Origin: Dehalococcoidia bacterium | GTDB taxonomy: Bacteria; Chloroflexota; Dehalococcoidia; Bin125 | Length of the DNA stretch: 64,000 nucleotides | Assembly (NCBI GenBank): GCA_965242485.1 | Contig: CBDESM010000003.1 | Location: 1,357,362-1,421,361 of the forward strand | Direction: 5' to 3' | Shown: piece by piece, positions 2,306-51,842 of the stretch | How positions within the stretch are numbered: the stretch's first letter is position 1 | How the letters are laid out: each line of letters opens with the position of its first letter | The notes under the pieces: model-generated | Seen by the model: the letters and a program-made list of their open reading frames with translations, nothing else | The model's database searches: none | Told to the model about the DNA's origin: nothing | Program-made: the position numbers and the translations under genes

Positions 2306-2341
2306 GCGACGGCCCTTCCGCCGCGGCTCGCGGCGGCCCGG

Positions 2342-3199: not shown

Positions 3200-3261
3200 G
3201 CTGCTGCTCCTTGAATTGCGGGGGGATGCGGGGAGCATAACGGGCGGCGCGGCCGGAGCGG

Positions 3262-7499: not shown

Positions 7500-7502
7500 C
7501 CC

Positions 7503-8165: not shown

Positions 8166-8435
8166 GGCGGCGCTGCTAGACTGGGCTTGTCATGGATGTC
8201 ATGGATGCCGTCATGAACACTGCGAGGCTTCCGCGCGGCGCTTCCGGCCGCGCCCCGTTCATCGCCCGGCCGCTCGTCGCTGTACCCGGCGGTTCCGCGC
8301 GACGCGCCCGCGGCTGAGAGCGCCGCGCGCATCGCCGCGGAACCAGCGCCGGTCGCGGGGCCGGCGCTCGCCGTTCCACCCGCCATCGCCTCCTCTCCCG
8401 CCCAGCGCGGAAGCCCCTCCGAACAGGAACGAACC
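8166..8435 (+). promoter_or_regulatory. Candidate ilvBNC leader/attenuator region
   Basis: 270-nt untranslated gap before ilvB. Contains a 41-codon small ORF (MDVMDAVMNTARLP...), a near-tandem 'gtcatggat' repeat, and two GC-rich palindromes (gcgccgg-N8-ccggcgc; ggttccgcg...cgcggaacc). Confidence 0.25.
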
Positions 8436-10115
8436 ATGCGAATGTCCGGCGCCGACATCCTGATGCACTGCCTCCGCGCCGAAGGCGTCGAGATCTTCTT
8501 CGGCTACCCCGGCGGCGTCGTCCTGCCGCTCTACAACCGGCTCGGCGACTACCCCGACATCAAGCACGTGCTGGTCCGCCACGAGCAGGCCGCGGCCCAC
8601 GCCGCCGACGGCTACGCCCGCGTTTCCGGCAAGATCGGCGTCTGCCTCGCCACCTCCGGCCCCGGCGCCACCAACCTCGTCACCGGCATCACCACCGCCT
8701 ACATGGACTCCGTCCCGATGGTCGTGATCACCGGCAACGTCGCCCGCGACCTGATCGGCCGCGACGGCTTCCAGGAGGCCGACATCACCGGCATCACCCT
8801 GCCGATCACCAAGCACAACTACCTGCTGATGCGGGCCAACGAGATCGCCCCCGCGGTCAAGGAAGCCTTCCACATCGCCGGCACCGGCCGCACCGGCCCG
8901 GTCCTCGTCGACATCCCCAAGGACGTCTTCATCGAAGAGGCCGAGTGGGACGGATACCCCCGCGAAGTCTCGCTGCGCGGCTACCCGGCCATGGACATCC
9001 CCCGCGCCGACGAGGTGGCCAAGGCGGCCGACGCGATCAACGCGGCCGAGAAGCCGATCATCATCGCCGGCCAGGGCGTCGTCGCCTCGGGCGCCGCGGC
9101 CGAACTGAAGCAGCTCGCCGAATCGGCCGACATCCCCGTGCTCACCACCCTGCTCGGCATCTCCGGCTTCCCCGACACCCACGAGCTCTCCTTCGGCTTC
9201 CTCGGCATGCACGGCAACTACTACGCCAACATGGCCGCCGACCGCGCCGACGTCGTGATCGGCATCGGCATGCGCTTCGACGACCGCGCCATGGGCCGCT
9301 TCGCCGACTTCAACCCCGGCGCCAAAATCGTCCACATCGACATCGACCCGGCCGAGATCGGCAAGAACTTCGAGACCCACGCGCCCGTCAACGGCGACGT
9401 CCGCGAGACGCTCGCGCGGCTGCTGCCCCAGCTCGACGCCGCCTCGCGCCCCGAATGGCGGGCCGAGATCGAGGCGATCAAGGCCGACCACCCGACCGAC
9501 TACATCGAAGAGGGCACTGACGTCACCGGCCCCTGGCTGGTCCAGGCCCTGGCCGAGGAAACCGACGGCGCGGCCACCATCGTCACCGGGGTCGGCCAGC
9601 ACCAGATGTGGGCGGCGCAGTACTACCCCTACTCGACCCCGCGCCAGTGGGCCACCAGCGGCGGCCTCGGCACGATGGGCTACGAAGTCCCCGCCGCCAT
9701 GGGCGCCCAGTTCGCCCAGAAGGAGCCGGTCTGGTCGATCTGCGGCGACGGCGGCTTCCAGATGACCTCGCAGGAGCTGCAGACCGTGCGCGAGCACGAC
9801 CTGCCCGTGCGCTACGCGATCTTCAACAACCACTACCTCGGCATGGTCCGCCAGTGGCAGGAGCTGTTCTACGAGAACAACTACCACTCGGTCGACTTGG
9901 GCCAGCCCGACTTCCTCAAGCTGGCCGACGCCTACGGCATCCCCGGCCTGCGCGCCGAAACCCGCGCCGAAGCCCGCCAGGTGCTGCGCGAGGCCAACGC
10001 GGCCGAGGGCCCCGTCGTGATCGACTTCCGCCTCCAGCCCGAGGAGAACGTCTGGCCGATGGTCCCGGCCGGCGCCGCGCTCTCCGAAACCATCGAATCC
10101 CCGGCCGAGCTCTAG
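8436..10115 (+). CDS. ilvB: Acetolactate synthase large subunit
   Basis: 559 aa; TPP enzyme with GYPGG...ATSGPGATN...GDG motifs, followed by ilvN and ilvC. Confidence 0.9.
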   Translation: MRMSGADILMHCLRAEGVEIFFGYPGGVVLPLYNRLGDYPDIKHVLVRHEQAAAHAADGYARVSGKIGVCLATSGPGATNLVTGITTAYMDSVPMVVITGNVARDLIGRDGFQEADITGITLPITKHNYLLMRANEIAPAVKEAFHIAGTGRTGPVLVDIPKDVFIEEAEWDGYPREVSLRGYPAMDIPRADEVAKAADAINAAEKPIIIAGQGVVASGAAAELKQLAESADIPVLTTLLGISGFPDTHELSFGFLGMHGNYYANMAADRADVVIGIGMRFDDRAMGRFADFNPGAKIVHIDIDPAEIGKNFETHAPVNGDVRETLARLLPQLDAASRPEWRAEIEAIKADHPTDYIEEGTDVTGPWLVQALAEETDGAATIVTGVGQHQMWAAQYYPYSTPRQWATSGGLGTMGYEVPAAMGAQFAQKEPVWSICGDGGFQMTSQELQTVREHDLPVRYAIFNNHYLGMVRQWQELFYENNYHSVDLGQPDFLKLADAYGIPGLRAETRAEARQVLREANAAEGPVVIDFRLQPEENVWPMVPAGAALSETIESPAEL

Positions 10116-12776: not shown

Positions 12777-14225
12777 ATGGGCCTAATGGCGCTATTTCGG
12801 CGGGCGGCTGCGCTGCTCGTCGCAGTCGGGCTGCTGGCCGTTTCGGTGGCGGGCGTGTCCGCGGACAACGGGGATGAAGAGACCGCCGTGGCGGCTGTGG
12901 CAACTGAGTTGCGGCCGACGCGGGTGGTTGCCGAGATTCCTGAGGGGTATGAAACATTGTTCCCGCTTGAGTGGGGAGGTGGCAGCCTGCTTCAACTCAA
13001 GGGCCGGTTGGCTGATCTCGGTTGCGCGATGAACACGCTGTGGTTCTATGATCGGGATAGATGGAATGGATACAACCGGTATGATCTGACGTACGATTTC
13101 CCGACCAATCGGCAGTTTCTCCAGCACTATGACCAAGAGGTACCCGCCGGCACGCTCTACGCGACCTGCGCGGATCAACCAGTCGGGAACGACCTACAGC
13201 CGACGCAGATCATCGCGGAGGTGCCGGAAGAATACGACACGATGTTTGAGCTGCAATGGGGAGGCGGGTCACTGCTGCATTTCAAGGGCCGTCTTGCCAC
13301 GATGGGGTGCATCGCAAACAACATTGAGATACACGATCTCGGTGCTGGTCGCACCTACACCTACAATCAATACAACACAAACTCAACAGACAGAGCAAAT
13401 CAACAATTCCTTACCAGCTTTGAACAATTCATACCTTCTGGAGCATTTTCGGCTGATTGCTATAACATCTGTGAATTCAAAGACAGGGAGTGTGTTTCGT
13501 TTGAGGGAGCACGAGATCAACATCAATATTATACAAGTGAAAAGTATCGTCTACAGGACGCAATTTGCACTAATGACTTTCACCCTATCGTTAAAGAAAA
13601 AGTTTTCCCTATACTACCTATGCTTCCCAATATTTGTATCATTAGATCTGGAAATAACACTGGATTTTATGGAGTTGGAGGTACTACATATACTTCAAAT
13701 TCTATACTGTATACCTTAAATATACAACCCTTTATCATGATATTCAGCGACAAAAATTACTATCGTAGAGATAACGAACATAGCGATATTTTGCTCCATG
13801 CAGAAATTCATGAATTGTGTCATATAAATCAACGATGGCACTGGACTCAACGATTAGCGCCCAACTTGAGTTATAACTATTCAGCCAATGCGCCTTGGCA
13901 ATATTTGCAAGCAAGTGAACATGGGAAAGAATTTATGATTGCCATAGGATATCAGATTGGTGGTATTGATTATGTGCCAAGCGCTACGGTATACAAAGAC
14001 ATATATAGTCCAGGAAGTATTATAGAGTTATCAGCTGAATTGTGCACTATGTATATTTTAGATAAAATGGGTCTTAATACTGCTTATAATTATCGCACAT
14101 GGAACATGTGGGATAAGATATTTGAAGAAATTCCAATTCGTGACTTCAATGTAAACAAATACCTCACCCCCCAAATCCGTGAATGGCTTGAAACCTATAT
14201 GATACTCCCTGAAATCACGGAATGA
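12777..14225 (+). CDS. Secreted protein with two N-terminal tandem ~95-aa repeats and a C-terminal HExxH zinc-metallopeptidase-like motif
   Basis: Signal peptide MGLMALFRRAAALLVAVGLLAVSVAGVSA. Repeats AEIPEGYETLFPLEWGGGSLLQLKGRLADLGC... and AEVPEEYDTMFELQWGGGSLLHFKGRLATMGC.... HAEIHELCH motif. GC drops from ~65% to ~35% within the ORF, around nt 13440. Confidence 0.55.
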   Translation: MGLMALFRRAAALLVAVGLLAVSVAGVSADNGDEETAVAAVATELRPTRVVAEIPEGYETLFPLEWGGGSLLQLKGRLADLGCAMNTLWFYDRDRWNGYNRYDLTYDFPTNRQFLQHYDQEVPAGTLYATCADQPVGNDLQPTQIIAEVPEEYDTMFELQWGGGSLLHFKGRLATMGCIANNIEIHDLGAGRTYTYNQYNTNSTDRANQQFLTSFEQFIPSGAFSADCYNICEFKDRECVSFEGARDQHQYYTSEKYRLQDAICTNDFHPIVKEKVFPILPMLPNICIIRSGNNTGFYGVGGTTYTSNSILYTLNIQPFIMIFSDKNYYRRDNEHSDILLHAEIHELCHINQRWHWTQRLAPNLSYNYSANAPWQYLQASEHGKEFMIAIGYQIGGIDYVPSATVYKDIYSPGSIIELSAELCTMYILDKMGLNTAYNYRTWNMWDKIFEEIPIRDFNVNKYLTPQIREWLETYMILPEITE

Positions 14226-29702: not shown

Positions 29703-29791
29703 CTCAGGCTCCTCTCGCCCGTATCCAGCTTCCGTAATCCTAGCCCCGCCGGACCTTGCGGGGCGCGGCGGCCCCGCGATACTCTGGCCGC

Positions 29792-30268
29792 ATGTCCGAA
29801 GGCCGAACCCATCACGAAGTCGCCGAAGCGACCGTCGCCTATCCCGCAACGGGACTTGCCGCTTTGCGCGAGCGGCTGGAGGAGTTCGACGGCTGGCTGA
29901 CGCCGGAGCAGCACCGGGTGATCGACGCGGAAGAGGACGGGGTGCCCGTGCTCTGCTTGCAGCTCTGGGTGCGCGATTACCAGGACATCGGGGCGCGCTG
30001 GGAGGCGCGCGACACGGGCGAGCCGCATCCGCCCACGCTCTACGCCTGGCTCAAGTTCCGCTCCCACCGCAAGGACAAGGCCTGGACCGATGCGGAGATC
30101 GAAGCGGCGCTGGCCGACCTGCACCAAGGCGCGCGCGAGATCAAGGACTCCGAGCCGCTCGAACGATCTCCCGATCCGCCGCCGCCCGGCTACGACGATT
30201 ACGACGTCGAGGATTGGTTCATGGACCTGAGATACGGTTTCACATGGCAGCGTCATCTGAAGTCGTGA
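29792..30268 (+). CDS. Hypothetical protein (copy 1 of a tandem duplicate), occupying the antitoxin position upstream of a PIN gene
   Basis: 158 aa, start MSEGRTHHEV. The start context ctggcNgcATGTCCGAAG is shared with copy 2. Tryptophan-rich, protein-like composition. Overlaps the VapC start by 25 nt. Confidence 0.5.
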   Translation: MSEGRTHHEVAEATVAYPATGLAALRERLEEFDGWLTPEQHRVIDAEEDGVPVLCLQLWVRDYQDIGARWEARDTGEPHPPTLYAWLKFRSHRKDKAWTDAEIEAALADLHQGAREIKDSEPLERSPDPPPPGYDDYDVEDWFMDLRYGFTWQRHLKS

Positions 30269-30684
30269 TCGAGCGCCTGCTCGACACCAACGCCGTGTCG
30301 AACTCCCTCAAACCCCGGATCGCGGCGGCGGTCGCTCCCTACCTGCAGACGCCCGGAGCCTCCGCGATCTCGTTCCAAACCGAGGGCGAGCTGGGCGTTT
30401 GGGCCTCATCGCCGACCATCCCTGCGGTCCACGCGCGGCAGATTCGCGCGTTCGTGCGCGATGCGCCGATTCTCTATGCGAATGAAGCGGTCGTCGCCCA
30501 CTACATCACGATCGTCCGTCGCCGGCGCAACGCGGGCCAGCCCGAAAACGTCAAGGACGCCTGGATCGCCGCTACCGCTCTCGCCTACGGCCTGCCCCTG
30601 ATCACCTTCGACCGCCACGGCTTCAACGACATTCCCGACCTCGATCTCACCCTGCTCCGCCTAGCCGGCCGGCTCCCTCGCTAA
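30244..30684 (+). CDS. vapC: PIN-domain ribonuclease, VapC-like toxin
   Basis: MAASSEVVIERLLDTNAVS...DAWIAATALAYGLPLITFDRHGFNDIPDLDL shows the conserved acidic residues of the PIN fold. Confidence 0.7.
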   Translation: MAASSEVVIERLLDTNAVSNSLKPRIAAAVAPYLQTPGASAISFQTEGELGVWASSPTIPAVHARQIRAFVRDAPILYANEAVVAHYITIVRRRRNAGQPENVKDAWIAATALAYGLPLITFDRHGFNDIPDLDLTLLRLAGRLPR

Positions 30685-30693
30685 TCTGGCTGC

Positions 30694-31185
30694 ATGTCCG
30701 AAGATCGAACCCGGCACGAGTCCACCGAAACCGCCCCGAGGCTTGCCGCGCTGCGCGAGCGGTTGGAGACGTTTGACGGCTGGCTGACGCCGGAGCAGCA
30801 CCGGGTGATCGACGCGGAGGAGGACGGGGTGCCCGTGCTCTGCTTGCAGCTCTGGGTGCGGGATTACCAGGACATCGGGGCGCGCTGGGAGGCGCGCGAT
30901 GCGGGCGAGCCGCATCCGCCCGCGCTCTACGCCTGGGTCAAGTTCCGTTCCCACCGCAAGGACAAGGCTTGGGCCGATGCGGAGATCGAAGCGGCGCTGT
31001 CCGACCTGCGCCAAGGCGCGCGCGAGATCAAGGACTCCGAGCCGCTCGGCAGGTCCCCCGACCCGCCGCCACCCGGTTACGAGGACGACTACGACGTCCA
31101 AGACTGGTTCATGGACCTGAGATACGGCTTCACATGGCAGCCGGCTGCGCCCGCCCGACTTGATCGGGCAGGGCGGATTGCCTGA
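30694..31185 (+). CDS. Hypothetical protein (copy 2 of the tandem duplicate, no PIN partner)
   Basis: 163 aa. About 93% identical at protein level to 29792..30268 over about 150 residues, with a different C-terminal tail. Confidence 0.5.
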   Translation: MSEDRTRHESTETAPRLAALRERLETFDGWLTPEQHRVIDAEEDGVPVLCLQLWVRDYQDIGARWEARDAGEPHPPALYAWVKFRSHRKDKAWADAEIEAALSDLRQGAREIKDSEPLGRSPDPPPPGYEDDYDVQDWFMDLRYGFTWQPAAPARLDRAGRIA

Positions 31186-31233: not shown

Positions 31234-32043
31234 TTAGCTGCCGGAGCCGGAGCCCGAACCGCTGCCGGACCCGGACCCACTGCCAGAGCCTGAACCGCTG
31301 CCCGAGCCAGATCCGCTACCGGAGCCGGAGCCCGAACCGGAGCCGCTGTCGCCGTCGGAAGTTGCGGGGGTGGCAACGGGCACTTGGCTGATGCCTTCGC
31401 CACGATGGGTGTCGAGCTGGCTGGACCAGTAGGTGATCCGGTAGGCGTTGGAGCTCACGGTCGTCCAAGTCTTCCCGTTTTCGGACGGGTAGACGATGTC
31501 CTCCTCGGGGATCGGCAGCGGGTCGCCGTTCCGCATGAACGGGGTCAGCGTGTGCGTGCAGACGTAGTCCTCGACCCGCGTCCACTCGTACCAAGTCTGC
31601 CGCCCGCCGCCGGCGTATGTGACTTCCTTCGTGCGCCCCGTCGGACGCCGGCTGTAGACGTGGTTGACCTCGCAGGTCATCGTCCTCTGGAATGACAGCT
31701 GCGGGTAGCGGCAGGTCTGTTCCGGATAGCCCTCCGGGTAGCCGGAGTACCTCGCGGCGCAAGCCGCGATCCGCGCCTCCTCCGCGGCTTGGGCGTCATC
31801 GTCGCCGCCCGAGCCTTCGCCTGATCCTTCACCTGATCCGTCGCCGGATCCTTCGCCCGAGCCTTCGCTTGAATCCTCGCTCGTCCCTGAGCCCGACCCG
31901 GAGCCTGAGTTGGAATCGTCCGACGGCGATTGGGCGCTCGCCGTCGCGGCCAGCGCGAAGACCGCGCCGACCGCCAGCAGGGCGCCGATCAGAAGCCGGC
32001 CGATCCATTCGCCTGATCCCCTGAGCCTGGTGAAGTCCAGCAT
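31234..32043 (-). CDS. Secreted protein with Gly/Ser-rich low-complexity segments and a C-terminal (GS)n tail
   Basis: Start MLDFTRLRGSGEWIGRLLIGALLAVGAVFALAATASA (signal peptide) with GAGGAG RBS. Lies 18-60 nt downstream of the RM gene on the same strand. The C-terminus is 25 x GS. Confidence 0.5.
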   Translation of the reverse strand: MLDFTRLRGSGEWIGRLLIGALLAVGAVFALAATASAQSPSDDSNSGSGSGSGTSEDSSEGSGEGSGDGSGEGSGEGSGGDDDAQAAEEARIAACAARYSGYPEGYPEQTCRYPQLSFQRTMTCEVNHVYSRRPTGRTKEVTYAGGGRQTWYEWTRVEDYVCTHTLTPFMRNGDPLPIPEEDIVYPSENGKTWTTVSSNAYRITYWSSQLDTHRGEGISQVPVATPATSDGDSGSGSGSGSGSGSGSGSGSGSGSGSGSGSGSGSGSGS

Positions 32044-32102
32044 CGATCTTCTCCTCGCGGTTTCCGGTGTAGTTTCACCATACACAACCTTCGCCGCGCA
32101 AC

Positions 32103-34937
32103 TTACTCACCCGGCTCCGTCAGCCGGCGGTTCGAGACCACGGGCTCCGAGGCCAGCATTCGCCGCAGCGGCGTCAGATCCGGCAGCCCCAGCACCTCCG
32201 CCAAGCCCGCATCCAGCCGTTCCCGCGCCGCGCAATCCGCCATCTCCGGCAAGGGCAGCAGCGTCTCCTCCGCCAATTCCTCGAACAGCGCCGCTAGCCG
32301 CTCCAGCTGCCCATCCGCCAGCTCGCGGACGTCGAGCACCGGCATTTCTTCCAAGTCGCCCTTCTTGAGGCTGACCCAGCCGCCTTCGGTTGTCGTTCGC
32401 GTGCCGAGCAGCGTGAGCAGTCCCAAACTGCTGTTCAGCCACAGCGCGAGGCCAAAATCATGCAGCTCTTCCGTGGTTTTGATCTCCCAGAAGACATTCG
32501 AGAGGACGTCCCGGTCGCATTTCATCGAAACCGTGCGGACGGTGTCCAAGCGCAACCGCTCCGCAACGAGCAGTCGCGCCGCCTTTTGCCAGAGATCCGT
32601 GGCGCTCTTCAATCTGCGTCCGGGTCGTGGTTTCGAGAGCGCTGCTAGATGTTTATTCGGTGCAACGCTCAGCGTTGTTCGTTCATTGGTGTCATGTCCG
32701 GCTACGAGCGGGTATGCCGTGTTGGTATCCGTATAGGTGAATCCGTCCAAGATGTCGCGGCGGTCCGGGCCGATGCTGCCGAGCTCGCCGAGCGGACAGA
32801 TTGGAAGCTCGGCTCTCGTCGACTGTCCTGGTACTTGGACCGTGCTACCGGCGAGCAGTGAGTGTGCTGCACGGGCGAGGTCGCCGCGCGAAAACTGCAC
32901 TCCGTCCCATTGTTCTCCCGTCGCGTCGCCTTGCGGCAGCGATATTGCTTCGCCGATGTGGCGGCCGTCGAGTTCGAGCAGGGCTGCGCCCGTTGCTTCG
33001 AGCTCGGCCGGGGGCGTCGCTCCGATCACGTCGGCGAGGCGGCCCGCGTCAAGCACGTTGTCGGGGTTTTCCCACAGATTCACGTAGGTCGTGCGCGACT
33101 CGCCTGTGTCCCCCTCCGCCCGTTTGGTCGCGATCAGCAGCGCTTCCGAGAGGTCGGTGCTGTCGGAGAAATTCCAGCGCTGCGGGTCGTGCGACGCGAT
33201 CACCATGTCCAAGCGGAAGTCGCGCTCGATCAGCGCCCGCGTCTGCTGCCACGAGCGGCCCGTGCAGACGGTCAGCGGCAGTACCAGCGCCAAGCGCCCC
33301 TCGCCGGCGCGGATTTTCGGCGTCACCGCGGCGACGAATGCAGCGCCGACGCCGGCTACGGCGGATGCGCCCTGCGACTTGAGCCGGGCCTTGATCTCGG
33401 ACTGGATTCGCGTCCGCTCCCTGTCCGGCAGGCTGCCGAAGAGCAGGCTCGAACGGGTGAACGGCGGGTTCATGATCGCCAAATCAAGCGGCGGCAGCAC
33501 CGCCGTATCAACTCCTTCTATTACCCCCCCCCCCCCCCCACTTATAGTATTCATCCCGCGTACCTTGGCGGGAGCAACGACCGCGACCGACTCGCCCGCG
33601 CCGAGCGGGTACTGCACGGCGGCCTCGCTCTGGCCGAGGAAATCGAGCGAGCCGAGCTTGACATCGTCGCTCGATGCTTCCAGCGGCATCACGTACAGGT
33701 TCATCCGGTCGAAGTGGATCGCCGGGTTCAGCATCGCCAAGCTGGTCGCCGCGAAGTGCACCGCCGAAAGCTGCACGTCGAACCCGTGCAGCGCCTGCTC
33801 GACCATCACCTTGTGCAGCGCGTCCTTCTTCTGCCCGCCCGCGGTCACGTGCCGCCGTTCCGCCTCCGACGCGACCGCCATCAGCAGCGTTCCGGTGCCG
33901 CAGGCGATGTCCGCGATGTTCAGCGAGGCCGGGAATTCGTGCTGCGCCCAATCCGTCTGCGGCGGCCACTGGTGGAAGACCAGCCGCGCCAGCATCGTCG
34001 CCGCCGGCACCGACGTGTAGTACGCCCCCGTGAATTTGGCGTCGGATAGCAGCGTGTGGAACAGCCGCCCCGACAAGTCGTGCCCCTCGACGTCGCGCGT
34101 CTGCCTGACCGCGTCGATCAGCGGGTCGATCACCGCGGCCTGCGCCGGCGCGGGCGCGTCGCAGAGGATGTCCAAGAGGTCCGCCGCCAGCTGGAAGACC
34201 GGCACGTAGTCGATCTCGTCGCAGATCGTGCGCCAAGCGTCGCGCAGCCCCGGCGCCCCGCGCTTGGCCGCCTCCGAAACCGTGGGCACCTGCGCGTGCG
34301 CGGCCGAGAGCCGCTCCTCGAAGGCGAGCGCGTTGAACAGCACCAGGCAGCCGATCCGCAGCGCCGCCGCCCGCTCCTTCTCCTTGTCCGACTCCGCGAT
34401 CGCGTCCGCGATCCGCTGCCCGATCCGCGCGTGCCGCGAGACTTCCTTGGCCGCCGTCTCCGTCGCGTAGCGCACCGCGCCGGCCGCCGCGGCCACGCGG
34501 TCGACGCCCTCGACGTGCAGGGGCAGCGCCCGCAGGAAATCGGCCAGCTGATGCGCGCTGCCGCTGCGCAGCTGCGGTTCCGGCTCGACCCGCTCCCGCG
34601 TGCTGTGCAGGTACCAGCTCAGATCCTCCGCCTCGGCTAGCGCCCGCCCCACGTCATCGGCCGTGTCCAGCCCCTGCGGATACAGCACCCCGATCCGCCC
34701 GATCGCGGCCGGGAACTCGCCGATTCGCTCCGCCAGCTGCGCGTCCAACTGCGCCCGTGCCCCCGCCCATTTGCACTCGACCAGCGCGAACTCGTCCCCC
34801 GCGAGCCGCTCGACGCGGATATCCGGCGCATCCCCGTCAAGCCGCTGCTCCGCCGCCGCCGCGATCCCCCGCGCCTTCAGCAACTCCCCCAGCAGCGTAT
34901 TCGCCGCCTCCTCCCGAGACCTCCATCGCCGCACCAT
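32103..34937 (-). CDS. Single-polypeptide nuclease + gamma-class N6-adenine DNA methyltransferase + C-terminal target-recognition region. Type IIL/IIG (MmeI-family-like) restriction-modification enzyme.
   Basis: 945 aa from ATG 34937 (MVRRWRS...). PD-(D/E)xK-like N-terminus (APDIRVERLAGDEFALVECKWAG). GAYYTS (the MmeI-type 'HYTS' motif X). Motif I IADIACGTGTLLMAV. Motif IV IMNPPF. A long C-terminal region. The listed ORF extends to a GTG at 35123 through a degenerate duplicated segment. Confidence 0.65.
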   Translation of the reverse strand: MVRRWRSREEAANTLLGELLKARGIAAAAEQRLDGDAPDIRVERLAGDEFALVECKWAGARAQLDAQLAERIGEFPAAIGRIGVLYPQGLDTADDVGRALAEAEDLSWYLHSTRERVEPEPQLRSGSAHQLADFLRALPLHVEGVDRVAAAAGAVRYATETAAKEVSRHARIGQRIADAIAESDKEKERAAALRIGCLVLFNALAFEERLSAAHAQVPTVSEAAKRGAPGLRDAWRTICDEIDYVPVFQLAADLLDILCDAPAPAQAAVIDPLIDAVRQTRDVEGHDLSGRLFHTLLSDAKFTGAYYTSVPAATMLARLVFHQWPPQTDWAQHEFPASLNIADIACGTGTLLMAVASEAERRHVTAGGQKKDALHKVMVEQALHGFDVQLSAVHFAATSLAMLNPAIHFDRMNLYVMPLEASSDDVKLGSLDFLGQSEAAVQYPLGAGESVAVVAPAKVRGMNTISGGGGGVIEGVDTAVLPPLDLAIMNPPFTRSSLLFGSLPDRERTRIQSEIKARLKSQGASAVAGVGAAFVAAVTPKIRAGEGRLALVLPLTVCTGRSWQQTRALIERDFRLDMVIASHDPQRWNFSDSTDLSEALLIATKRAEGDTGESRTTYVNLWENPDNVLDAGRLADVIGATPPAELEATGAALLELDGRHIGEAISLPQGDATGEQWDGVQFSRGDLARAAHSLLAGSTVQVPGQSTRAELPICPLGELGSIGPDRRDILDGFTYTDTNTAYPLVAGHDTNERTTLSVAPNKHLAALSKPRPGRRLKSATDLWQKAARLLVAERLRLDTVRTVSMKCDRDVLSNVFWEIKTTEELHDFGLALWLNSSLGLLTLLGTRTTTEGGWVSLKKGDLEEMPVLDVRELADGQLERLAALFEELAEETLLPLPEMADCAARERLDAGLAEVLGLPDLTPLRRMLASEPVVSNRRLTEPGE
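33524..33539. repeat. Homopolymeric C16 (G16 on the coding strand) inside the RM gene
   Basis: Read directly from the sequence: ttaCCCCCCCCCCCCCCCCactt. On the coding strand it encodes SGGGGGV in-frame, and it is flanked by unusually AT-rich codons. Confidence 0.9.
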
Positions 34938-34939
34938 GC

Positions 34940-35207
34940 CCCCATTGTCGCACAGCGCCCCGGCCGTCCCGTTTAACCGCGCGTGCCGCGAGATTTCCTT
35001 GGCCGCCGTCTCCGTCGCGTAGCGCACCGCGCCAGCGGCGGCCACGCGGTCGACGACCTCAATGTGCTGGGGCAGCGCCCGCCCCATATCCTCGGTCGTG
35101 TCCAGCCCCTGCGGATACAGCACCCTGATTTACCCGATCGCCGCCGGGAACGCGCCGATTCGCTCCGCCAACTGCGCCCGGGCCCCCGCCCATTTGCACT
35201 GGTGCGA
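34940..35207 (-). pseudogene. Degenerate duplicate of codons ~45–115 of the RM gene (contains an in-frame TAA)
   Basis: Minus-strand translation reads ...QCKWAGARAQLAERIGAFPAAIG*IRVLYPQGLDTTEDMGRALPQHIEVVDRVAAAGAVRYATETAAKEISRHAR. This is homologous to the RM gene segment KWAGARAQLDAQLAERIGEFPAAIGRIGVLYPQGLDTADD...SRHAR. About 90% DNA identity to 34420–34760. Confidence 0.4.
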
Positions 35208-35224
35208 TGGGTTATGCTAGATTG
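35195..35224 (+). promoter_or_regulatory. Candidate sigma70-like promoter (TTGCAC-N18-TAGATT) for the low-GC inserted gene
   Basis: It sits exactly at the junction between GC-rich repeat sequence and the low-GC insert, about 50 nt upstream of ATG 35275 (RBS GGAAGGGG). Confidence 0.2.
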
Positions 35225-35274
35225 AAAGCAACGGGGTGGCGAGTGTTGCTCCGAACACAGGAAGGGGCGGGGCG

Positions 35275-36141
35275 ATGCGCTGGGTACTTGTGGCTACAAT
35301 CGCGGTAATCGCAATTGCGCTGGTGGGAGCAATTCTATTTCTTTTTCAATCTGAGCAAGAGCAAGTCGAACCTCAGCCTACTCCACGCACATCCGTTGGG
35401 CGAACAGTCGTAGATGATGCGTATAATAATCCAGTTCCTGTGGATTTCAAGGATGGCAGCACAATTGACGTGCGTCCCGCAATTTTGATAACTGATAAAG
35501 ATGATTGGCGTTTGGCTGTGCAATTTAGACATAGATCAAGTCAACGGCAAAGTCAGCGCACCGTTCTTGGCAGAGTCAAGTCGTCGCAAATTGCTGAAAC
35601 GCGCATGGGCGATTGTTTTGCAAGCAAAGTTGTTCCTACGGGGGCAATAGTGCGCGACTCTGTATTGGCAGTGAAGGTCATCGCTTGTACGCACGATAAT
35701 GGCGATATTACACTTGGCATTCAAGGCTATCGCGCGAATGAACATGGCGATAAAGGCGAACGTTTCATCACCACACGTATTAAAAAAGAGCAACAACGTT
35801 CAGATATTTGGTTTAGTTCTACATTTACCAAAAATACTTACGATCTTATGCCGTGGCACTACACAGCACCACGAGCAGTGCCGACGTATCCTAGACAGTC
35901 TGATGTTCCGTCGTCCAGCCTTGAAGTTGATACAGGTGCTAGGTCGCGGGAAGTTTGTGATATTCACGGCGGGCGATGGACTGGGGGGCGATGCTTGAAA
36001 TATCACCAGCGCCCCATTGTTACGCAATCCGTAGAGTCTGCTTGCCGTGCCGTTTGGGGTGAGACGCAGCAATATTCAGAGTGTGTGTCTTTCTGTAAGT
36101 CAAATCCCACACTGCGGTCTCCAATGTGCGGGCGGCGCTGA
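35275..36141 (+). CDS. Hypothetical membrane-anchored protein encoded in a ~40% GC insert
   Basis: MRWVLVATIAVIAIALVGAILFLF (N-terminal TM) followed by a Cys-containing soluble domain. Composition strikingly different from the flanking ~70% GC DNA. No family recognised. Confidence 0.45.
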   Translation: MRWVLVATIAVIAIALVGAILFLFQSEQEQVEPQPTPRTSVGRTVVDDAYNNPVPVDFKDGSTIDVRPAILITDKDDWRLAVQFRHRSSQRQSQRTVLGRVKSSQIAETRMGDCFASKVVPTGAIVRDSVLAVKVIACTHDNGDITLGIQGYRANEHGDKGERFITTRIKKEQQRSDIWFSSTFTKNTYDLMPWHYTAPRAVPTYPRQSDVPSSSLEVDTGARSREVCDIHGGRWTGGRCLKYHQRPIVTQSVESACRAVWGETQQYSECVSFCKSNPTLRSPMCGRR

Positions 36142-36150
36142 TGTCCACCT

Positions 36151-36315
36151 TCACTCAACCAATGCGAACTTGCCTCTCGCCAGCCGCTCGACGCGGATAT
36201 CCGGCGCATCCCCGTCAAGCCGCTGCTCCGCCGCTGCCACGATCCCCCGCGCCTTCAGCAGCTCCCCCAGCAGCGTATTCGCCGCCTCCTCCCGAGACCT
36301 CCATCTCCGTGCCAT
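36151..36315 (-). pseudogene. Diverged 5' fragment (start codon + 54 codons) of an RM-gene copy
   Basis: Encodes MARRWRSREEAANTLLGELLKARGIVAAAEQRLDGDAPDIRVERLARGKFALVE*, versus MVRRWRSREEAANTLLGELLKARGIAAAAEQRLDGDAPDIRVERLAGDEFALVECK in the intact gene. Together with 34940–35207 it forms one split pseudo-copy of the first ~115 codons. Confidence 0.4.
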
Positions 36316-36339
36316 GCCCCCGATTGTCGCACAGCGCCG

Positions 36340-36420
36340 ATCTTCGCACTAGCTAACCTATGTTATATAAACTTGAAATTATACTCAATACTATTCTATA
36401 CCATTCTTTCGTCGCAATCA
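36340..36420 (-). promoter_or_regulatory. AT-rich putative promoter region upstream of the RM 5' fragment
   Basis: An ~80-nt AT-rich stretch in a 70% GC background. The minus strand reads ...tagtattgagTATAATttcaagtttatataacat..., about 50 nt before the fragment's ATG. Confidence 0.25.
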
Positions 36421-36662
36421 TCCTTCGCGCGTTGTTTCTTCCGCCTGCGGTCTTTCGCATAGAGAGCGCCCAGCCAGTAGGCTCCCGCCATCAAGAACGG
36501 CAGCGCCAGAATCGCGAACTCGACATCTAGTGCTCGGGCAGCGAAATAGAGGGCAATCCCTATTACCGAAAGCGGCAACGCGCGTTCCACGTAACGCGCT
36601 GCCAGCGATCCCTCGTCTATCCACGTCCGGAAGGTTCGGACGAACCCGCGCAAGCGCGTCAT
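36396..36662 (-). CDS. Small hypothetical membrane protein
   Basis: 88 aa with two hydrophobic helices (SVIGIALYFAARAL / FAILALPFLMAGAYWLGALYA). Confidence 0.35.
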   Translation of the reverse strand: MTRLRGFVRTFRTWIDEGSLAARYVERALPLSVIGIALYFAARALDVEFAILALPFLMAGAYWLGALYAKDRRRKKQRAKDDCDERMV

Positions 36663-36736: not shown

Positions 36737-37801
36737 TCAGTCTGCGACTGCTTCCGTGCCTGTTGGGGCGGTGAGAATCTCGGCGACCATTGTCTCGGCG
36801 GCTGCGGTTGGGGTTGTGCCTTGTTCTTTGGCGCGGTGGAAGATGTTGCGGGTTGTTTCGAAGACGCTTTCGGCGTGTTGTTGGGACTGTTGGGGGGGCC
36901 AGGACTCGATTTCTATGGCTACGGAGATGAGGCCGCCGCTGTTGACGATGAAATCGGGGGCGTAGAGGATGTTGAGGTTGGCGATTTTGGCGGCGTCTTC
37001 GGGGTCTTGATCGAGTTGGTTGTTGGCTGCGCCGCAGATGCCGCGGCAGCGGAGCTGAGGGATCGTGGTCGCGTTGAGGATGCCGCCGAGCGCGTTGGGG
37101 GAGAGGATGTCGCACTCTGCGCGCATTGCTTCGTCGACGGAGAGGGCGGTTGCGCCGATCTGCGCTGCGAGCGTCGCGGCCGCGTCGGCGCGCACGTCGG
37201 CGACGAGCACTTCGCCGCCTGATTCGGCCAGCCGTGTTGCGACTTTGCCGCCGACCTTGCCGACGCCGACGACGGAGACGCGGCGGCCGGCGAACTCCGG
37301 GCTGCCGTCCAGCGCGTCGAGCGTGGCGCGCATGCCTTGCAGGACGGTCGTCGCCGTGAGTGCGGAGGTGTCGCCCGAGCCGCCCTTGGCCGGCGACATT
37401 CCGCACATGTAGGGCGTCAGCTCGGAGAGGCGGTCGACTTCGGCGGTGGTCGTGCCGACGTCGGTCGTGGTGATGAATTTGCCGCCGAACTCAGTGACGA
37501 ATTCGGCGTAGGAGCGGAGCATCGCGTCGGTTTTCGCGCCGGGGTCGCCGATCACGACGGCCTTGCCGCCGCCGAAGGGGAGGCGCGCGCCGGCGGCCTT
37601 CATCGTCATCGCGCCGGAGAGGCGCAGGACGTCGCGGAGGGCTTCGCCGCGGTCGGCGTAGGGCTGCCAGCGGGTGCCGCCGACGGCGGGGCCGAGCGCG
37701 GTCGAGTGGACGGCGATGATCGCGGTCAGGCCGGCATCGTCGTCGCGCCAGAGCCGCACGTCCTCGTGGGTCGCCGTCGGAATCTGCTCGATCTCCGCCA
37801 T
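36737..37801 (-). CDS. Glu/Leu/Phe/Val dehydrogenase family (leucine/valine dehydrogenase-like)
   Basis: Start MAEIEQIPT with GGAGG RBS. GGGKAVVIGDP catalytic Lys region and the NAD-binding VGVGKVGGKVA motif. The listed 738-aa ORF is an antisense-type extension. Confidence 0.8.
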   Translation of the reverse strand: MAEIEQIPTATHEDVRLWRDDDAGLTAIIAVHSTALGPAVGGTRWQPYADRGEALRDVLRLSGAMTMKAAGARLPFGGGKAVVIGDPGAKTDAMLRSYAEFVTEFGGKFITTTDVGTTTAEVDRLSELTPYMCGMSPAKGGSGDTSALTATTVLQGMRATLDALDGSPEFAGRRVSVVGVGKVGGKVATRLAESGGEVLVADVRADAAATLAAQIGATALSVDEAMRAECDILSPNALGGILNATTIPQLRCRGICGAANNQLDQDPEDAAKIANLNILYAPDFIVNSGGLISVAIEIESWPPQQSQQHAESVFETTRNIFHRAKEQGTTPTAAAETMVAEILTAPTGTEAVAD

Positions 37802-46254: not shown

Positions 46255-46358
46255 CGCCAGCCTCCTGCGCCCACAGGCTAGCGTCTCGGCGCGCGGAGTC
46301 CGCGAATGTCCTGCATAGAATGCCCGTGCCATGCTCGCGTCGCTGGAGGAACCGACTG

Positions 46359-47840
46359 ATGCCCCGCAATCTTGAAAATCGCACCATCTTCACTGGCGAC
46401 TGCCTCGACATCCTGCGCGGGGTCAACTCGGATTCGGTGGACCTGATCTACCTCGATCCGCCGTTCAACTCAGATCGGACCTACGGCAACGATTTCGATG
46501 ACCACTGGCAGCTCGACCGGTTGCCGGAGGCCGTGATGAAGCGGCTGCTGGAGACGATGGGGCGGGTGACGCAGGACAACGACGGGGCGGGCGCTGTGAT
46601 CAACGCCGCCGGCAAGGTGGCCGGCGAGTCGACTCAGGCGTACCTCACCTACATGTTCGAGCGCATCGCGGAGATGGCGCGGGTCTTGAAGCCGACGGGG
46701 AGCATCTACCTGCATTGCGACGACACGGAAGGCGCGTGGCTGAAGGCGGTGATGGATGCCGTGTTCGGGCGCAGCTGGTACCGCAACGAGATCGTCTGGC
46801 AGCGGACGAGTGCGCACAACGATGCCGGGGCATTCGGCCGCGTCGCCGATTACGTCCTGTTCTACAGCCGTTCGCCGATCAATGAAGCGGCCGTCGTCAC
46901 GCCGCTGAAGGATGAGCACGTGGCCGCGAAGTACCGGCATGACGATGGCGATGGGCGGGGCAGGTACCGCGCCGACGGCGACCTGACGGGGGCCGACCTC
47001 TCCGACGGCGAGAGCGGACGGCCGTGGGGCGGTTACGACCCGTCCGCGCGCGGGCGGCATTGGGCGGTGCCCAAGGCCCGCGGGCGCGGCGAGTATGCCG
47101 ACTGGATCGCGGAGAACATCATTCCGGGATATGAGAAGATCGAGGGCATCCACGCCCGTTTGAATGAGCTGGATGCGGCGGGTTTGATCTACAGGACGAG
47201 CAAGGGCACGCCCAACATCAAGCGCTATCTGAGCGCTTCAAAGGGGCAGGTGCCGACGGCGATCTGGACCGACATCCCGCCTGTGAACTCGCAGGCCGCA
47301 GAGAAGACCGGATATCGGACCCAGAAACCGCTCAAGCTGCTCGAACGAATCATCGCTGCCTCGTCAAACGAGGGCGACCTCGTGCTCGATCCGTTCTGCG
47401 GCTGCGCGACGGCGTGCGTCGCCGCCGAGCGCTTGGGCCGGGATTGGGTCGGCATCGACCAGAATGACGAAGCGCTCCAACAGGTCAAGATCCGGCTCGC
47501 CCAGCAGGAACCCGGAATCGCGCTCTGGGCGGAGAAGGTCGTGCACCGGACGCGCCCGCCCAAGCGGACGGATGAAGGCGACCTGACGCTTTCGGATCCG
47601 ATTCCGCTCTCGGTCAAGCGCGAGATGTACGAGGAGCAAAACGGACGCTGCAATGCGTGGACGATCGGCTGCGAAGAACGCCCTTCGATCTTCAACATTG
47701 AGGTGGATCACATCCGCCCCCGCAGCGCCGGCGGTGCGCACGAGCGGTCGAATCTCCAACTCCTCTGCGGCTGGTGCAACCGCTCCAAGCGTGACCGCAC
47801 GATGGATTACCTCGCACAGCGCATCGCCGAAAGAGGGTGA
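46359..47840 (+). CDS. DNA methyltransferase (PF01555 N4/N6, beta-class) fused to a C-terminal HNH endonuclease domain
   Basis: Start MPRNLENRTIF after GGAGGA. LIYLDPPFNSD (motif IV near the N-terminus). LVLDPFCGCATAC (motif I near the C-terminus, hence beta-class). C-terminal EVDHIRPRSAGGAHERSNLQLLCGWCNRSKRD is an HNH motif. Confidence 0.75.
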   Translation: MPRNLENRTIFTGDCLDILRGVNSDSVDLIYLDPPFNSDRTYGNDFDDHWQLDRLPEAVMKRLLETMGRVTQDNDGAGAVINAAGKVAGESTQAYLTYMFERIAEMARVLKPTGSIYLHCDDTEGAWLKAVMDAVFGRSWYRNEIVWQRTSAHNDAGAFGRVADYVLFYSRSPINEAAVVTPLKDEHVAAKYRHDDGDGRGRYRADGDLTGADLSDGESGRPWGGYDPSARGRHWAVPKARGRGEYADWIAENIIPGYEKIEGIHARLNELDAAGLIYRTSKGTPNIKRYLSASKGQVPTAIWTDIPPVNSQAAEKTGYRTQKPLKLLERIIAASSNEGDLVLDPFCGCATACVAAERLGRDWVGIDQNDEALQQVKIRLAQQEPGIALWAEKVVHRTRPPKRTDEGDLTLSDPIPLSVKREMYEEQNGRCNAWTIGCEERPSIFNIEVDHIRPRSAGGAHERSNLQLLCGWCNRSKRDRTMDYLAQRIAERG

Positions 47841-48128
47841 ATGATGGATTGGCAAGTGGTGCTCAGCACATTCGTCGGAGCGTTGACAGGATCACTGCCA
47901 GTGATTCTCTTGACTTGGTGGCTCACGATGTCAGCACGCAAGTCGGCTGCGAGATCGCAGCGGCGCATTGAAGGATCACTGAAAGGAATTAACGATGCTC
48001 TTCAAGAAATGGCATACTGGGGCGGCTTTGATGCAGAACGCCAAATTGAAGCAGACATGGAAGCAGCGCGTGCGAAGACTCGGGCGCATGAAGAAGGAGA
48101 GGATCCTGAGAATCGGGGAGACGCCTGA
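47841..48128 (+). CDS. Small hypothetical membrane protein (low-GC)
   Basis: 95 aa. TM segment VVLSTFVGALTGSLPVILLTWWLTM. Starts 1 nt after the MTase stop. About 50% GC. Confidence 0.35.
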   Translation: MMDWQVVLSTFVGALTGSLPVILLTWWLTMSARKSAARSQRRIEGSLKGINDALQEMAYWGGFDAERQIEADMEAARAKTRAHEEGEDPENRGDA

Positions 48129-48132
48129 TGAG

Positions 48133-48615
48133 ATGGTCGTCGTCTCTGATCGGCTGCATGATTTAGATTGGATCCCAGTCACGGCGACTAAATTTCCAAT
48201 CCGTTGGTGGATCGGAGCGGATGGCTCGCGGCGAATCGAGCCAGTGAAGGACGCCACACCTAGGAGTCTTCAATTAGCATTCGAGATCAATACGACCACT
48301 GAAATTCGCTTGCTTTGGCTCTCAGCTGGACGCTTCTTACATTTCGAACGCGCATACCACCAAAGTGATGGCCAGTGCGTGATCGAAAGAGGCTCCGGGA
48401 AGATCATATTCTATAACAGATACGCTATTGCGCGCGAAGAGGTGTTCAGTCGTGTACGCCTGATAATCGAATATCTGCCGAAAGAAGACTCATGGTCGGA
48501 AATTGCTTATGCTGAATTCTTGGAGCTTGATACATCCTCTCTTCGCGATGGCTGGAAACGCTGGTTCACAGAATGGATTCGCTTTGCCCGAGTCAGCATC
48601 TTCGGAGATCGGTAG
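48133..48615 (+). CDS. Hypothetical protein (low-GC)
   Basis: Start MVVVSDRL chosen 12 nt after GGGGAG and 5 nt after the previous stop. The longer 47995 start would overlap the small gene by 134 nt. W/Y/F/K/I-rich, genuine-looking composition. Confidence 0.35.
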   Translation: MVVVSDRLHDLDWIPVTATKFPIRWWIGADGSRRIEPVKDATPRSLQLAFEINTTTEIRLLWLSAGRFLHFERAYHQSDGQCVIERGSGKIIFYNRYAIAREEVFSRVRLIIEYLPKEDSWSEIAYAEFLELDTSSLRDGWKRWFTEWIRFARVSIFGDR

Positions 48616-50509: not shown

Positions 50510-51295
50510 TTACGACAACCGCGCTGCTAGCTTGCCGCGTTCCGACCACTTCGCCGGTTCGGCCACTTCCCTGATGAGGTTGTAATCGACATGCGTCCAG
50601 TAGGGCAGAGCGTCGTTGAAGAGAGCGATGCGGGGCAGATTGCTCACTCCATTGGATGAATGGGCGATGTCGCCGAACGCCGCGTATGCGGCATTGATGG
50701 CAGCGTCCGCTGACGGTTGATCGCGGCCGTTCACCCACTGGACCAACGCGGTGCGCTCTCCGACCACGTGAAAGTCAATAGTCCAGCGTCGTCCCGATCG
50801 GCCTTCGGCCTGGACTCCGGGGTTGAACGGGACCTGCAGCTCGGTGAGCCAGCTGCCCACCCGATCTTGACTGTCCAGCCGTGAATCTTCCTTCTTCATC
50901 CGGGGAGCACCTGTGAACCACAGGTCAGCGAGGCGGAGCGCAGTCTGCGCGACCGAGTAGACCGCAAAGGGCAATTCGCCAAGTGTCTGGCAGTCACGAC
51001 GCAGCCGGCCGCGGGAGATCGCGACTCCGCTGGTTCGCTGAATGTGGTCCAACAACTCGCTCTGTTTCTTCGTGAGCGCGTCAATGCCTCGCCGAGTCCA
51101 GAGCCAGCCCAAGGCTTCGCCGAAATCGGTGACCGCGTGCGCGTCGCCGTCACTGACGACATACACGTCAATCATCGTCCTGTCCGGATACAGGAGAGGC
51201 GTCGTGACGCGCACGGCTGAGTTGGGGAGTTCTTCGCAGCTGAAATGGCCATGAGCCTTTCCCGCGAGCGCACGGGAGATTTGCGTGGTGTTCAT
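50510..51295 (-). CDS. Uncharacterised ~260-aa protein, family 'A' copy 1 (array member)
   Basis: Paralogue of 51843..52637 and 52653..53444. Shared N-terminal motif TPLLYPD..IDV.V....G...V.DFG.A..WL and central L.FT.GV...GRSG..WT.DF. ATGA overlap with the upstream family-B gene. Confidence 0.55.
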   Translation of the reverse strand: MNTTQISRALAGKAHGHFSCEELPNSAVRVTTPLLYPDRTMIDVYVVSDGDAHAVTDFGEALGWLWTRRGIDALTKKQSELLDHIQRTSGVAISRGRLRRDCQTLGELPFAVYSVAQTALRLADLWFTGAPRMKKEDSRLDSQDRVGSWLTELQVPFNPGVQAEGRSGRRWTIDFHVVGERTALVQWVNGRDQPSADAAINAAYAAFGDIAHSSNGVSNLPRIALFNDALPYWTHVDYNLIREVAEPAKWSERGKLAARLS

Positions 51296-51768
51296 AGCAG
51301 CACCTCTCCCTGTACTTCGGGCATCATAAACGACCCGGTGTGGTGGATGCGGGCTTCAGCGCAGAACTGGAGCCATGCGAAGTCTGGCTCATTCCACGTC
51401 GCTGTGATGTCTTTCGGCTCAAATGCATACACTTCTTCACTTTTATCAGTCCAGATCTGCTTATGCGTTCCCGGATGTCTGCTGCCGTCCAAATTTCGGT
51501 GGTTTACCGCACCCATGTCCAAGCCATAGATGCGCCAGCGCCGCGCATAGATGAGATTGAAGGAGAGTTTGCTTGCGCTCGGGTTGTACCAGCCGTGCAT
51601 CTGCAGTTGCTCTGGGACATCTGCCAGAATCGGTGCCGTGAACATCGCCGCCCCAGCATGGCCAGGGTCTTGGCTCCACTCAATGTCGTCATTGATCTGT
51701 TTCTCGCTTTCGTAGATGAGTCTCCGGACCTCATCCCCTGATAGCTGTTTTGCCACTGCAAGCACCAA
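51292..51768 (-). CDS. Uncharacterised ~150-aa protein, family 'B' copy 2 (array member)
   Basis: Paralogue of 53441..53890. Shared GWYNP...KL.F.......IYGL.MG..H..LD......H...WT......Y.P.DI.A.W..P. Lower GC (~50%). Confidence 0.5.
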   Translation of the reverse strand: MVLAVAKQLSGDEVRRLIYESEKQINDDIEWSQDPGHAGAAMFTAPILADVPEQLQMHGWYNPSASKLSFNLIYARRWRIYGLDMGAVNHRNLDGSRHPGTHKQIWTDKSEEVYAFEPKDITATWNEPDFAWLQFCAEARIHHTGSFMMPEVQGEVLL

Positions 51769-51842
51769 TCTTTCGCACGCGCCGTCTGCATGCTAGCGCT
51801 GCTCAAGATGGCGTGTCAGGCGCCGGCGGCGCGGAAGCCGTG

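Follow-up and report, generated by a model that had tools for sequence, protein, structure and literature searches.

A putative restriction-modification (RM) gene of Type IIG type lies within a 64,000-nt stretch of a Dehalococcoidia genome (GenBank assembly GCA_965242485.1, contig CBDESM010000003.1, positions 1,357,362 to 1,421,361 of the forward strand), here called the window, whose own numbering is used throughout. Upstream of this intact gene are two fragments of its 5′ end, separated by a 951-bp insert that carries an unrelated gene. On sequence comparison the locus is very probably the non-functional scar of two events specific to this lineage, a duplication and an insertion, standing before an intact RM gene. 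A reading made earlier from the letters alone (the sequence-only reading) had proposed that the 5′ region was duplicated and that one copy was then disrupted by foreign DNA, and this is supported by the empty site in a close relative, by a 23:8 excess of changes in the fragments over the intact gene, and by the foreign third-position GC content (GC3) of the insert.

The empty site is found in the relative L079 (loci of relatives are referred to by L numbers), which shares 92–96% nucleotide identity with the window and was found via homologues of a small upstream gene, orf88, whose contigs are syntenic with the window. The order in L079 is an ELFV dehydrogenase, orf88, an AT-rich spacer and a single, uninterrupted RM 5′ end, with neither duplication nor insert at the locus. 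Its positions 1–2021 correspond to window positions 38165–36145 (the ELFV dehydrogenase, orf88, the AT-rich spacer and the upstream fragment, copy B, up to the insert junction), and its positions 1828–3901 to window positions 34959–32882. Copy B is placed at the ancestral, promoter-proximal position because the ancestral upstream flank runs on into it, and since L079 is undisturbed, the duplication and the insertion are both specific to the lineage of the window. This synteny comparison, which had been proposed along with the original idea, thus bears out its core. An extra N-terminal RM fragment was seen at none of 47 genome loci and none of 25 metagenome loci carrying the RM family; the related loci in the Joint Genome Institute (JGI) metagenomes are all at most 41% identical.

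The intact gene and its fragments

The intact gene (32103..34937, − strand) begins at ATG 34937 (MVRRWRS...), as the sequence-only reading had it, ends at 32103 and encodes 944 aa. A database protein search returned more than 1000 homologues of about 941 aa that align over 99% of this product, and the start at 34937 therefore gives the full-length protein. Its assignment as a fused nuclease-methyltransferase draws on homologues, motifs, PADLOC and Foldseek. In an alignment of 24 homologues, the residues of a PD-(D/E)xK signature at the N-terminus (E30, P38-D39, E54-C55-K56) are invariant, as are DIACGTG (343–349) and NPPF (490–493), which correspond to motifs I and IV of gamma-class N6-adenine methyltransferases. 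PADLOC matched the protein to MTase_II (1.6e-9), a Type II methyltransferase model. The AlphaFold model is poor overall (mean predicted local distance difference test score, pLDDT, 56.8) and usable over residues 1–280, where residues 2–113 form a predicted alpha-beta-beta-beta-alpha-beta nuclease core with pLDDT mostly 65–89. Foldseek ranked BpuSI first (E=2e-8), followed by BsaXI, DrdV, Type I HsdM and BREX PglX, at low TM-scores (0.2–0.25 for BpuSI, BsaXI and DrdV) and with a query model of the low mean confidence just given. By motif and model, then, the protein has a predicted N-terminal PD-(D/E)xK nuclease domain fused to a putative gamma-class N6-adenine methyltransferase.

This architecture resembles that of Type IIG enzymes (BpuSI, DrdV, MmeI-like), in which nuclease, methyltransferase and target recognition domain form a single chain: the intact gene encodes one chain of about 940 aa, with the PD-(D/E)xK residues (E30, PD38-39, E54-x-K56) on the predicted nuclease core, then the gamma-type methyltransferase motifs, then a C-terminal region of about 400 aa, and its best structural match, at a low TM-score, is BpuSI. 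It differs from those enzymes in that no Pfam or NCBIfam model matched at threshold (MTS reached 17.7 bits against a cut-off of 23, and the methyltransferase matches were all sub-threshold) and in that sequence and profile searches of the PDB gave no significant match, PglX alone appearing at E=0.13. We therefore treat the protein as a putative enzyme of an unnamed Type IIG-like family, which among the closer matches is largely confined to metagenome-assembled genomes of Chloroflexota and Dehalococcoidia. Look-ups of source annotation by cluster yielded no names of use.

Copy B (36152..36338, − strand) spans codons 1–54, starting from an ATG of its own at 36315, and the 22 nt that precede them, which include a conserved box, TGTGCGACAAT, at 36333–36323. 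Read from 36338 to 36152 it matches the intact gene from 34959 to 34774, first at 16/16 nt and then at 156/170 nt (92%), and its product would run from MARRWRS to ALVE before meeting a TGA at the insert junction. The second fragment, copy A (34977..35200, − strand), comprises codons 54–171 and adjoins the intact gene, from which it is separated by a 17-nt filler. From 35200 to 34977 it matches positions 34777 to 34425 in four blocks of 89–97% identity, with 43 codons missing through deletions of 12, 114 and 3 bp. All three deletions are in-frame and each lies between short direct repeats (GCGCAGNTGG, GCGGGCGCT and GCN triplets), which is typical of slippage. An in-frame TAA at 35132–35130 (− strand) arose from CGG by three adjacent changes. 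Pairwise alignment places the repeats far beyond chance, at or near the positions given in the sequence-only reading. The diverged upstream copy of codons 1–54 with its own ATG was described correctly, and so was the stretch of about 90% identity with an in-frame stop next to the intact gene, except that it comprises codons 54–171 less the three deletions and not codons 45–115 or so.

The copy A frame also passes through the filler into the genuine ATG, creating a 1006-aa open reading frame (ORF) from GTG 35123. Gene callers can mis-start the intact gene on account of this in-frame extension from the pseudo-copy.

The filler, TTAAACGGGACGGCCGG (34960..34976, − strand), lies between copy A and the box ahead of the intact gene and joins the two. 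It has no match elsewhere in the window and is unlike the sequence after the RM stop codon. These details bear on how the duplication began. The whole gene may first have been duplicated in tandem, the upstream paralogue being inactivated by the insert and the stop codon and then eroded by deletions, the largest of which would have taken codon 172 to the end together with most of the spacer between the copies and left the filler. Such a history differs from a partial duplication in the first step only. The family does have a locus with two intact tandem copies (L022, 82% protein identity), the three deletions in copy A attest to active deletional erosion, and the filler may be what is left of the spacer between the copies. 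Against it, one extra large event is needed, the 3′ two-thirds of the second copy have left no trace, and the filler resembles neither the sequence following the RM stop codon nor anything else in the window. We regard a whole-gene beginning as rather unlikely.

Which of the copies is decaying was determined by polarising the differences over 405 aligned nt, using L079 as the close outgroup and L080 and L001 as checks. The intact gene and the copy differ at 32 positions, the intact gene and L079 at 22, and the copy and L079 at 37. Changes derived in the copy account for 23 of the 32 differences, and those derived in the intact gene for eight, with one that could not be assigned. The copy-derived changes comprise 12 G-to-A, six C-to-T and five others, so that 18 of the 23 are GC-to-AT transitions, and they fall on codon positions 1, 2 and 3 in the ratio 9:6:8, as against 2:1:5, of mixed types, for the intact gene. 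Together with the TAA and the three deletions, these counts indicate that the fragment is under relaxed constraint. The branch ratio of about 3:1 and the lack of codon-position bias fit a neutrally decaying paralogue beside a gene under selection.

The relationship between the copies matters as much as their rates. The intact gene and the copy share derived bases relative to L079, L080 and L001, and because these are shared against L079 each is the nearest relative of the other. Of the two starts, MARR (in copy B) is the ancestral one and MVRR (in the intact gene) is derived. When only the distant outgroups L001 and L042 were used, the count was 24 for the copy and three for the intact gene, the first three differences being mis-assigned to the copy. 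A foreign or imported origin of the fragments was rejected on the shared derived bases and on both ratios, 24:3 with the distant outgroups and 23:8 with L079.

The same evidence bears on the converse history, in which the insertion came first and killed a single-copy RM gene, which later regained an intact 5′ end from a closely related strain through illegitimate or homologous recombination; the fragments would then be the resident allele and the intact 5′ end the import. The eight changes derived in the intact gene, among them the change from MARR to MVRR and a 1-nt deletion in the spacer between box and ATG, can be read in this way, and the family is often disrupted in other genomes, by an IS110-family element in L041 and an IS5-like element in L045. 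Yet the intact gene and the copy share derived bases relative to L079, the 23:8 ratio is that of a pseudogene against a selected gene, and the divergence of the intact gene from L079 does not clearly change at codon 171, being 5.4% within the duplicated part and 4.3% over a 2.1-kb alignment in which that part is contained. A donor nearer than any sequence found would also be required, and we consider this order of events very improbable.

The locus as we read it resembles other cases of partial tandem duplication followed by degeneration: the copies are direct and adjacent, a close relative has the single-copy state, and the truncated copy evolves faster, lacks codon-position bias and has gained a stop codon and slippage deletions. 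Unlike the usual pseudogene relic, it has captured a complete foreign gene that is apparently intact and conserved.

The insert and gene X

The insert (35201..36151, + strand; 951 bp, 50% GC) is absent from L079 and interrupts the copy within the nuclease motif, precisely between E54 and C55. Its GC3 of 41.5%, compared with 85% for the RM gene, marks it as compositionally foreign. The sequence-only reading was right about a segment with an opposite-strand membrane protein between the pseudo-halves and too low in its estimate of about 40% for the overall GC content. It had also described an imperfect direct repeat of 5–6 bp at the junctions. A direct repeat is present, as an exact 4-bp CACT (left copy 35197..35200, right copy 36152..36155, + strand), and the next 7 nt agree at 4/7 positions only. 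An 11-bp target-site duplication, suggested by the overlap of BLAST alignments, was rejected on this 4/7 match and on the changes in the extra 7 nt, which are unlike the other substitutions in the copy.

The search for terminal inverted repeats that had been suggested at the outset found none in the insert, and the search for further copies found none within the 64-kb window. There was no plasmid match, and the gene carried by the insert has no match to a transposase or any other family in Pfam, NCBIfam or PADLOC. In the absence of inverted ends, a transposase, a second copy in the window and a plasmid match, an insertion sequence (IS), a miniature inverted-repeat transposable element or another transposon was rejected. 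The CACT repeat could be a target-site duplication or, equally, microhomology at the junction. The simplest reading of how the insert entered is illegitimate recombination at this 4-bp microhomology, a step that we infer. Other low-GC islets in the window have no flanking repeats.

Gene X (35275..36141, + strand) occupies most of the insert. Its 288-aa product has a hydrophobic membrane anchor at the N-terminus and is rich in Cys at the C-terminus. Homologues of it are few: three were found in a set of 5.8 billion clustered proteins, and five representatives in one of 1.84 billion. Those elsewhere have 48–57% identity, and the relatives carry lipoprotein-type signal peptides. On this evidence gene X is a real, conserved gene of a very small, predicted lipoprotein family. 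Part of the scar, being apparently intact and conserved, would thus encode a probable working protein.

In its only other known contexts, L004 (3040–5399) and L006 (892–3265), gene X stands between two HAD-hydrolase paralogues, which have 62–63% protein identity. It is GC-poor there (54–55%, on contigs of 67–69% GC overall), relative to both flanks in L006 and to the upstream flank only in L004, and the homology of these two loci to the window is confined to the coding sequence. The idea that gene X always travels with target duplications was found to be unsupported, given two kinds of context only and flanking paralogues just 62–63% identical.

Promoter, history and points of doubt

The AT-rich spacer (36339..36395, − strand), the ancestral upstream region of the RM gene, is also conserved in L079. 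The wider stretch 36340–36420, correctly picked out by the sequence-only reading as lying ahead of the upstream copy, has 31% GC in a window with a mean of 69%. Beyond the spacer is orf88 (36396..36662, − strand), which encodes a conserved small, predicted two-helix membrane protein with homologues of 73–84% identity; it has no Pfam, NCBIfam or PADLOC match and is the ancestral upstream neighbour of the RM gene in the clade.

Closer to the intact gene, an extended −10-like box (TGTGCGACAAT, 34944..34954, − strand), consisting of TGn and the −10-like hexamer GACAAT, is a candidate core promoter. It lies 6 nt before the ATG of the intact gene, and 7 nt before that of copy B, L079 and L080. Among 47 family members, 12 have the same box, or one of its variants GATAAT, GATAGT and TATAAT, at 6–9 nt from the start codon, compared with about 0.1 per offset elsewhere, and several of these members are homologues of about 60% identity in unrelated genomic contexts. 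Besides the window, the box or a variant was noted in L001, L011, L014, L017, L024, L025, L027, L030, L042, L047, L079 and L080. The spacing between box and ATG shifts by 1–3 nt, and the box is therefore not coding sequence. Bacterial leaderless genes are marked by a TANNNT signal some 12 nt ahead of the start codon, and Chloroflexi are one group in which it has been detected (PMC3160421). The conserved box 6–9 nt before the start suggests leaderless transcripts in the RM family. The intact gene probably keeps a core promoter of this type, having lost only the AT-rich upstream part. The earlier suggestion of an active copy that may be without its original promoter is in this respect half right: the AT-rich part was lost, and the core box was retained within the duplicated unit.

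The history that we propose starts from the state seen in L079, with the ELFV dehydrogenase, orf88, the AT-rich spacer, the TGTGCGACAAT box and a single RM gene. A segment of about 536 bp, from about 23 nt before the ATG to codon 171, was then duplicated in direct tandem with the 17-nt filler, perhaps by end-joining or template switching, or else by a whole-gene tandem duplication later eroded by deletion. This left a truncated upstream fragment with the native flank, and downstream a second copy continuous with the rest of the gene and intact. Into the upstream fragment a 951-bp low-GC piece, with complete gene X and its own putative ribosome-binding region, entered between E54 and C55, probably by illegitimate recombination, leaving the 4-bp flanking repeat. 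Over 405 nt the fragment has since taken on 23 substitutions, CGG-to-TAA among them, of which G-to-A and C-to-T make up 18, and it has undergone the three deletions. The intact gene would still owe its transcription to the duplicated −10-like box, giving an mRNA with no leader or almost none, and would do so without the AT-rich region.

Several points weigh against parts of this account. A sigma-70 scan, which needs a −35 hexamer, found no promoter either in the AT-rich stretch or before the intact gene, and it is from conservation that the promoter of the intact gene was assigned. Seven copy-derived changes fall within 21 nt (34779–34799 against 36157–36177) in copy B beside the insert junction, a cluster far denser than the rest of the copy and one that uniform neutral decay does not predict; its cause may be error-prone repair where the insert entered, or else gene conversion that weakens towards the edge of homology. 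The filler has no identifiable source. Finally, the arrangement is carried by one assembly only, and an exact search for the junction in the JGI metagenomes found nothing.

The last of these points bears on whether the arrangement is an artefact, such as a chimera of two strain variants or a repeat wrongly resolved when the genome was assembled from a metagenome. The source does look metagenome-assembled or of uncultured type, the junction is on no independent contig in that search, and exact-protein look-ups found no record in the protein collection of the 944-aa and 1006-aa products (the same being true of the 301-aa and 288-aa products of the window). Mis-assembly would, however, have to account for copies that differ by 8%, three deletions and one stop codon, for junctions at a 4-bp repeat and a 17-nt unique filler instead of a long shared k-mer, for the placement of gene X and the orf88 of this arrangement on a 2.6-Mb contig, and for a decay pattern that is biologically coherent. 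We find it hardly credible.

A scar may also be set against a functional switch, in which RecA-mediated recombination between copy B and the intact gene would delete 1378 bp (gene X and copy A) and put the gene back next to its native AT-rich upstream region, or in which the fragments would be regulatory, for example as antisense to gene X. The sequence-only reading had likewise seen the repeats as a possible substrate for recombination. Recombination is physically possible, as the fragments and the intact gene are direct repeats with identical runs of 53, 44 and 21 bp, and the deletion product would be an intact gene. A selected function is another matter: the fragment evolves neutrally, with its stop codon and deletions, and nothing maintains it; the deletion would be irreversible; no recombinase family was matched among the ORFs searched (29.7–36.7 kb); and the arrangement is absent from all relatives. 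To a switch we accordingly give the least credence of all the explanations considered. Our preferred reading remains a non-functional scar.

Signs of turnover in the family, and neighbouring genes

Within the intact gene, codons 467–471 contain a run of 16 G (G16; 33524..33539, − strand), with unusually AT-rich flanks, about 20 codons before NPPF, and its length differs among relatives. In the window the gene is intact and in frame at G16. At the same site L079 has G13 (3249) and a gene split into 471 and 465 aa, L080 has G15 (9805) and a split gene, L042 has G15 (7367) and a frame break at the tract, and L001 has G13 (5659) and a gene in frame. The RM gene is thus split or frame-shifted at the tract in three of four close relatives (L079, L080 and L042), with the caveat that homopolymer lengths in assemblies are error-prone. 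Distant members have runs of G8 to G17 at other positions (L016 at 8071, L043 at 8067, L038 at 7792), with a frame break at the run in two of the three (L038 and L043).

Phase-variable Type IIG genes with homopolymer tracts are known in Helicobacter pylori and Campylobacter, e.g. JHP1272 (PMC3936762; PMC8355987). Like these, the intact gene has a long in-frame G run whose length sets the frame and differs among relatives. The hosts differ, the Dehalococcoidia here being known from metagenome assemblies only, and the variation in the tract is seen between assemblies. It is possible, and we put it forward tentatively, that in uncultured Dehalococcoidia the RM gene serves as a contingency locus, turned on and off through slipped-strand mispairing at its G13–G16 tract. 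The 5′ duplication, the IS hits and the tandem copies would then be by-products, left behind as an enzyme that is costly because self-restricting was repeatedly lost and regained.

In other Dehalococcoidia genomes, members of the family are rearranged in their own ways. L041 is interrupted by the IS110-family element (7779–9044) and L045 by the IS5-like element at the NPPF motif (7428–8401), and in L022 (3063–8781) the two intact tandem copies have near-identical C-termini. The genes disrupted in L041 and L045 belong to the same family as the intact gene of the window. In the window, by contrast, the inserted DNA lacks both a transposase and inverted ends, its flanking repeat is of 4 bp only, and it struck a spare fragment and spared the working copy.

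The boundary between the ELFV dehydrogenase (window 36737–37801) and the RM gene is a variable slot, in which a UvrD-type gene and orf88 are present or absent. The order in L080 and L081 is ELFV dehydrogenase, UvrD-type helicase-nuclease, orf88 and RM; in L001 it is ELFV dehydrogenase, UvrD and RM; and in L042 the RM gene follows the ELFV dehydrogenase after just 30 nt. The UvrD-type helicase (925–928 aa, with a C-terminal PD-(D/E)xK/Cas4-like domain) lies at 1452–4238 in L001, 5212–7989 in L080 and 1368–4145 in L081, and is absent from this boundary in the window, L079 and L042.

On the other side, the RM gene is immediately followed by a gene (31234–32085, − strand) for a 283-aa protein of secreted type that contains long Gly-Ser repeats. 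This gene is present in L079 and absent from L001 and L042, and is a second lineage-restricted insertion flanking the RM gene. Further on, tandem paralogues of 159–170 aa flank a PIN-domain gene (29756–31185, + strand), with two copies in the window and three in L001 (7117–9056), at 68–78% identity.

Elsewhere in the window, a 482-aa secreted-type ORF (12777–14225, + strand) has a high-GC N-terminal half with an internal repeat and a C-terminal half (about 13200–14100) in which GC drops abruptly to about 35%, with no flanking repeats found; it looks like a chimeric gene. At 46320–48615 a 506-aa ORF that resembles a DNA methyltransferase, has a DPPF motif and is HNH-like at its C-terminus is followed by small ORFs in an islet of 49–54% GC, and there is a further low-GC islet at 51.2–51.6 kb (region 51200–51770). 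Together these may be another defence-type region, as far as sequence features indicate.

The locus is an ordinary duplication-and-insertion scar, unusually well documented, and matters little by itself. What it offers is a clean, datable case of a gene partly duplicated, foreign DNA captured and a pseudogene decaying with an AT bias, in a genome of 69% GC. A better target for follow-up is the large, unnamed Type IIG-like family of Chloroflexota to which the intact gene appears to belong, with its signs of turnover including the long poly-G tracts. If these tracts do switch the gene, homopolymer-driven phase variation of RM systems, known mainly from host-adapted pathogens, would extend to a Chloroflexota lineage and to this unnamed family.

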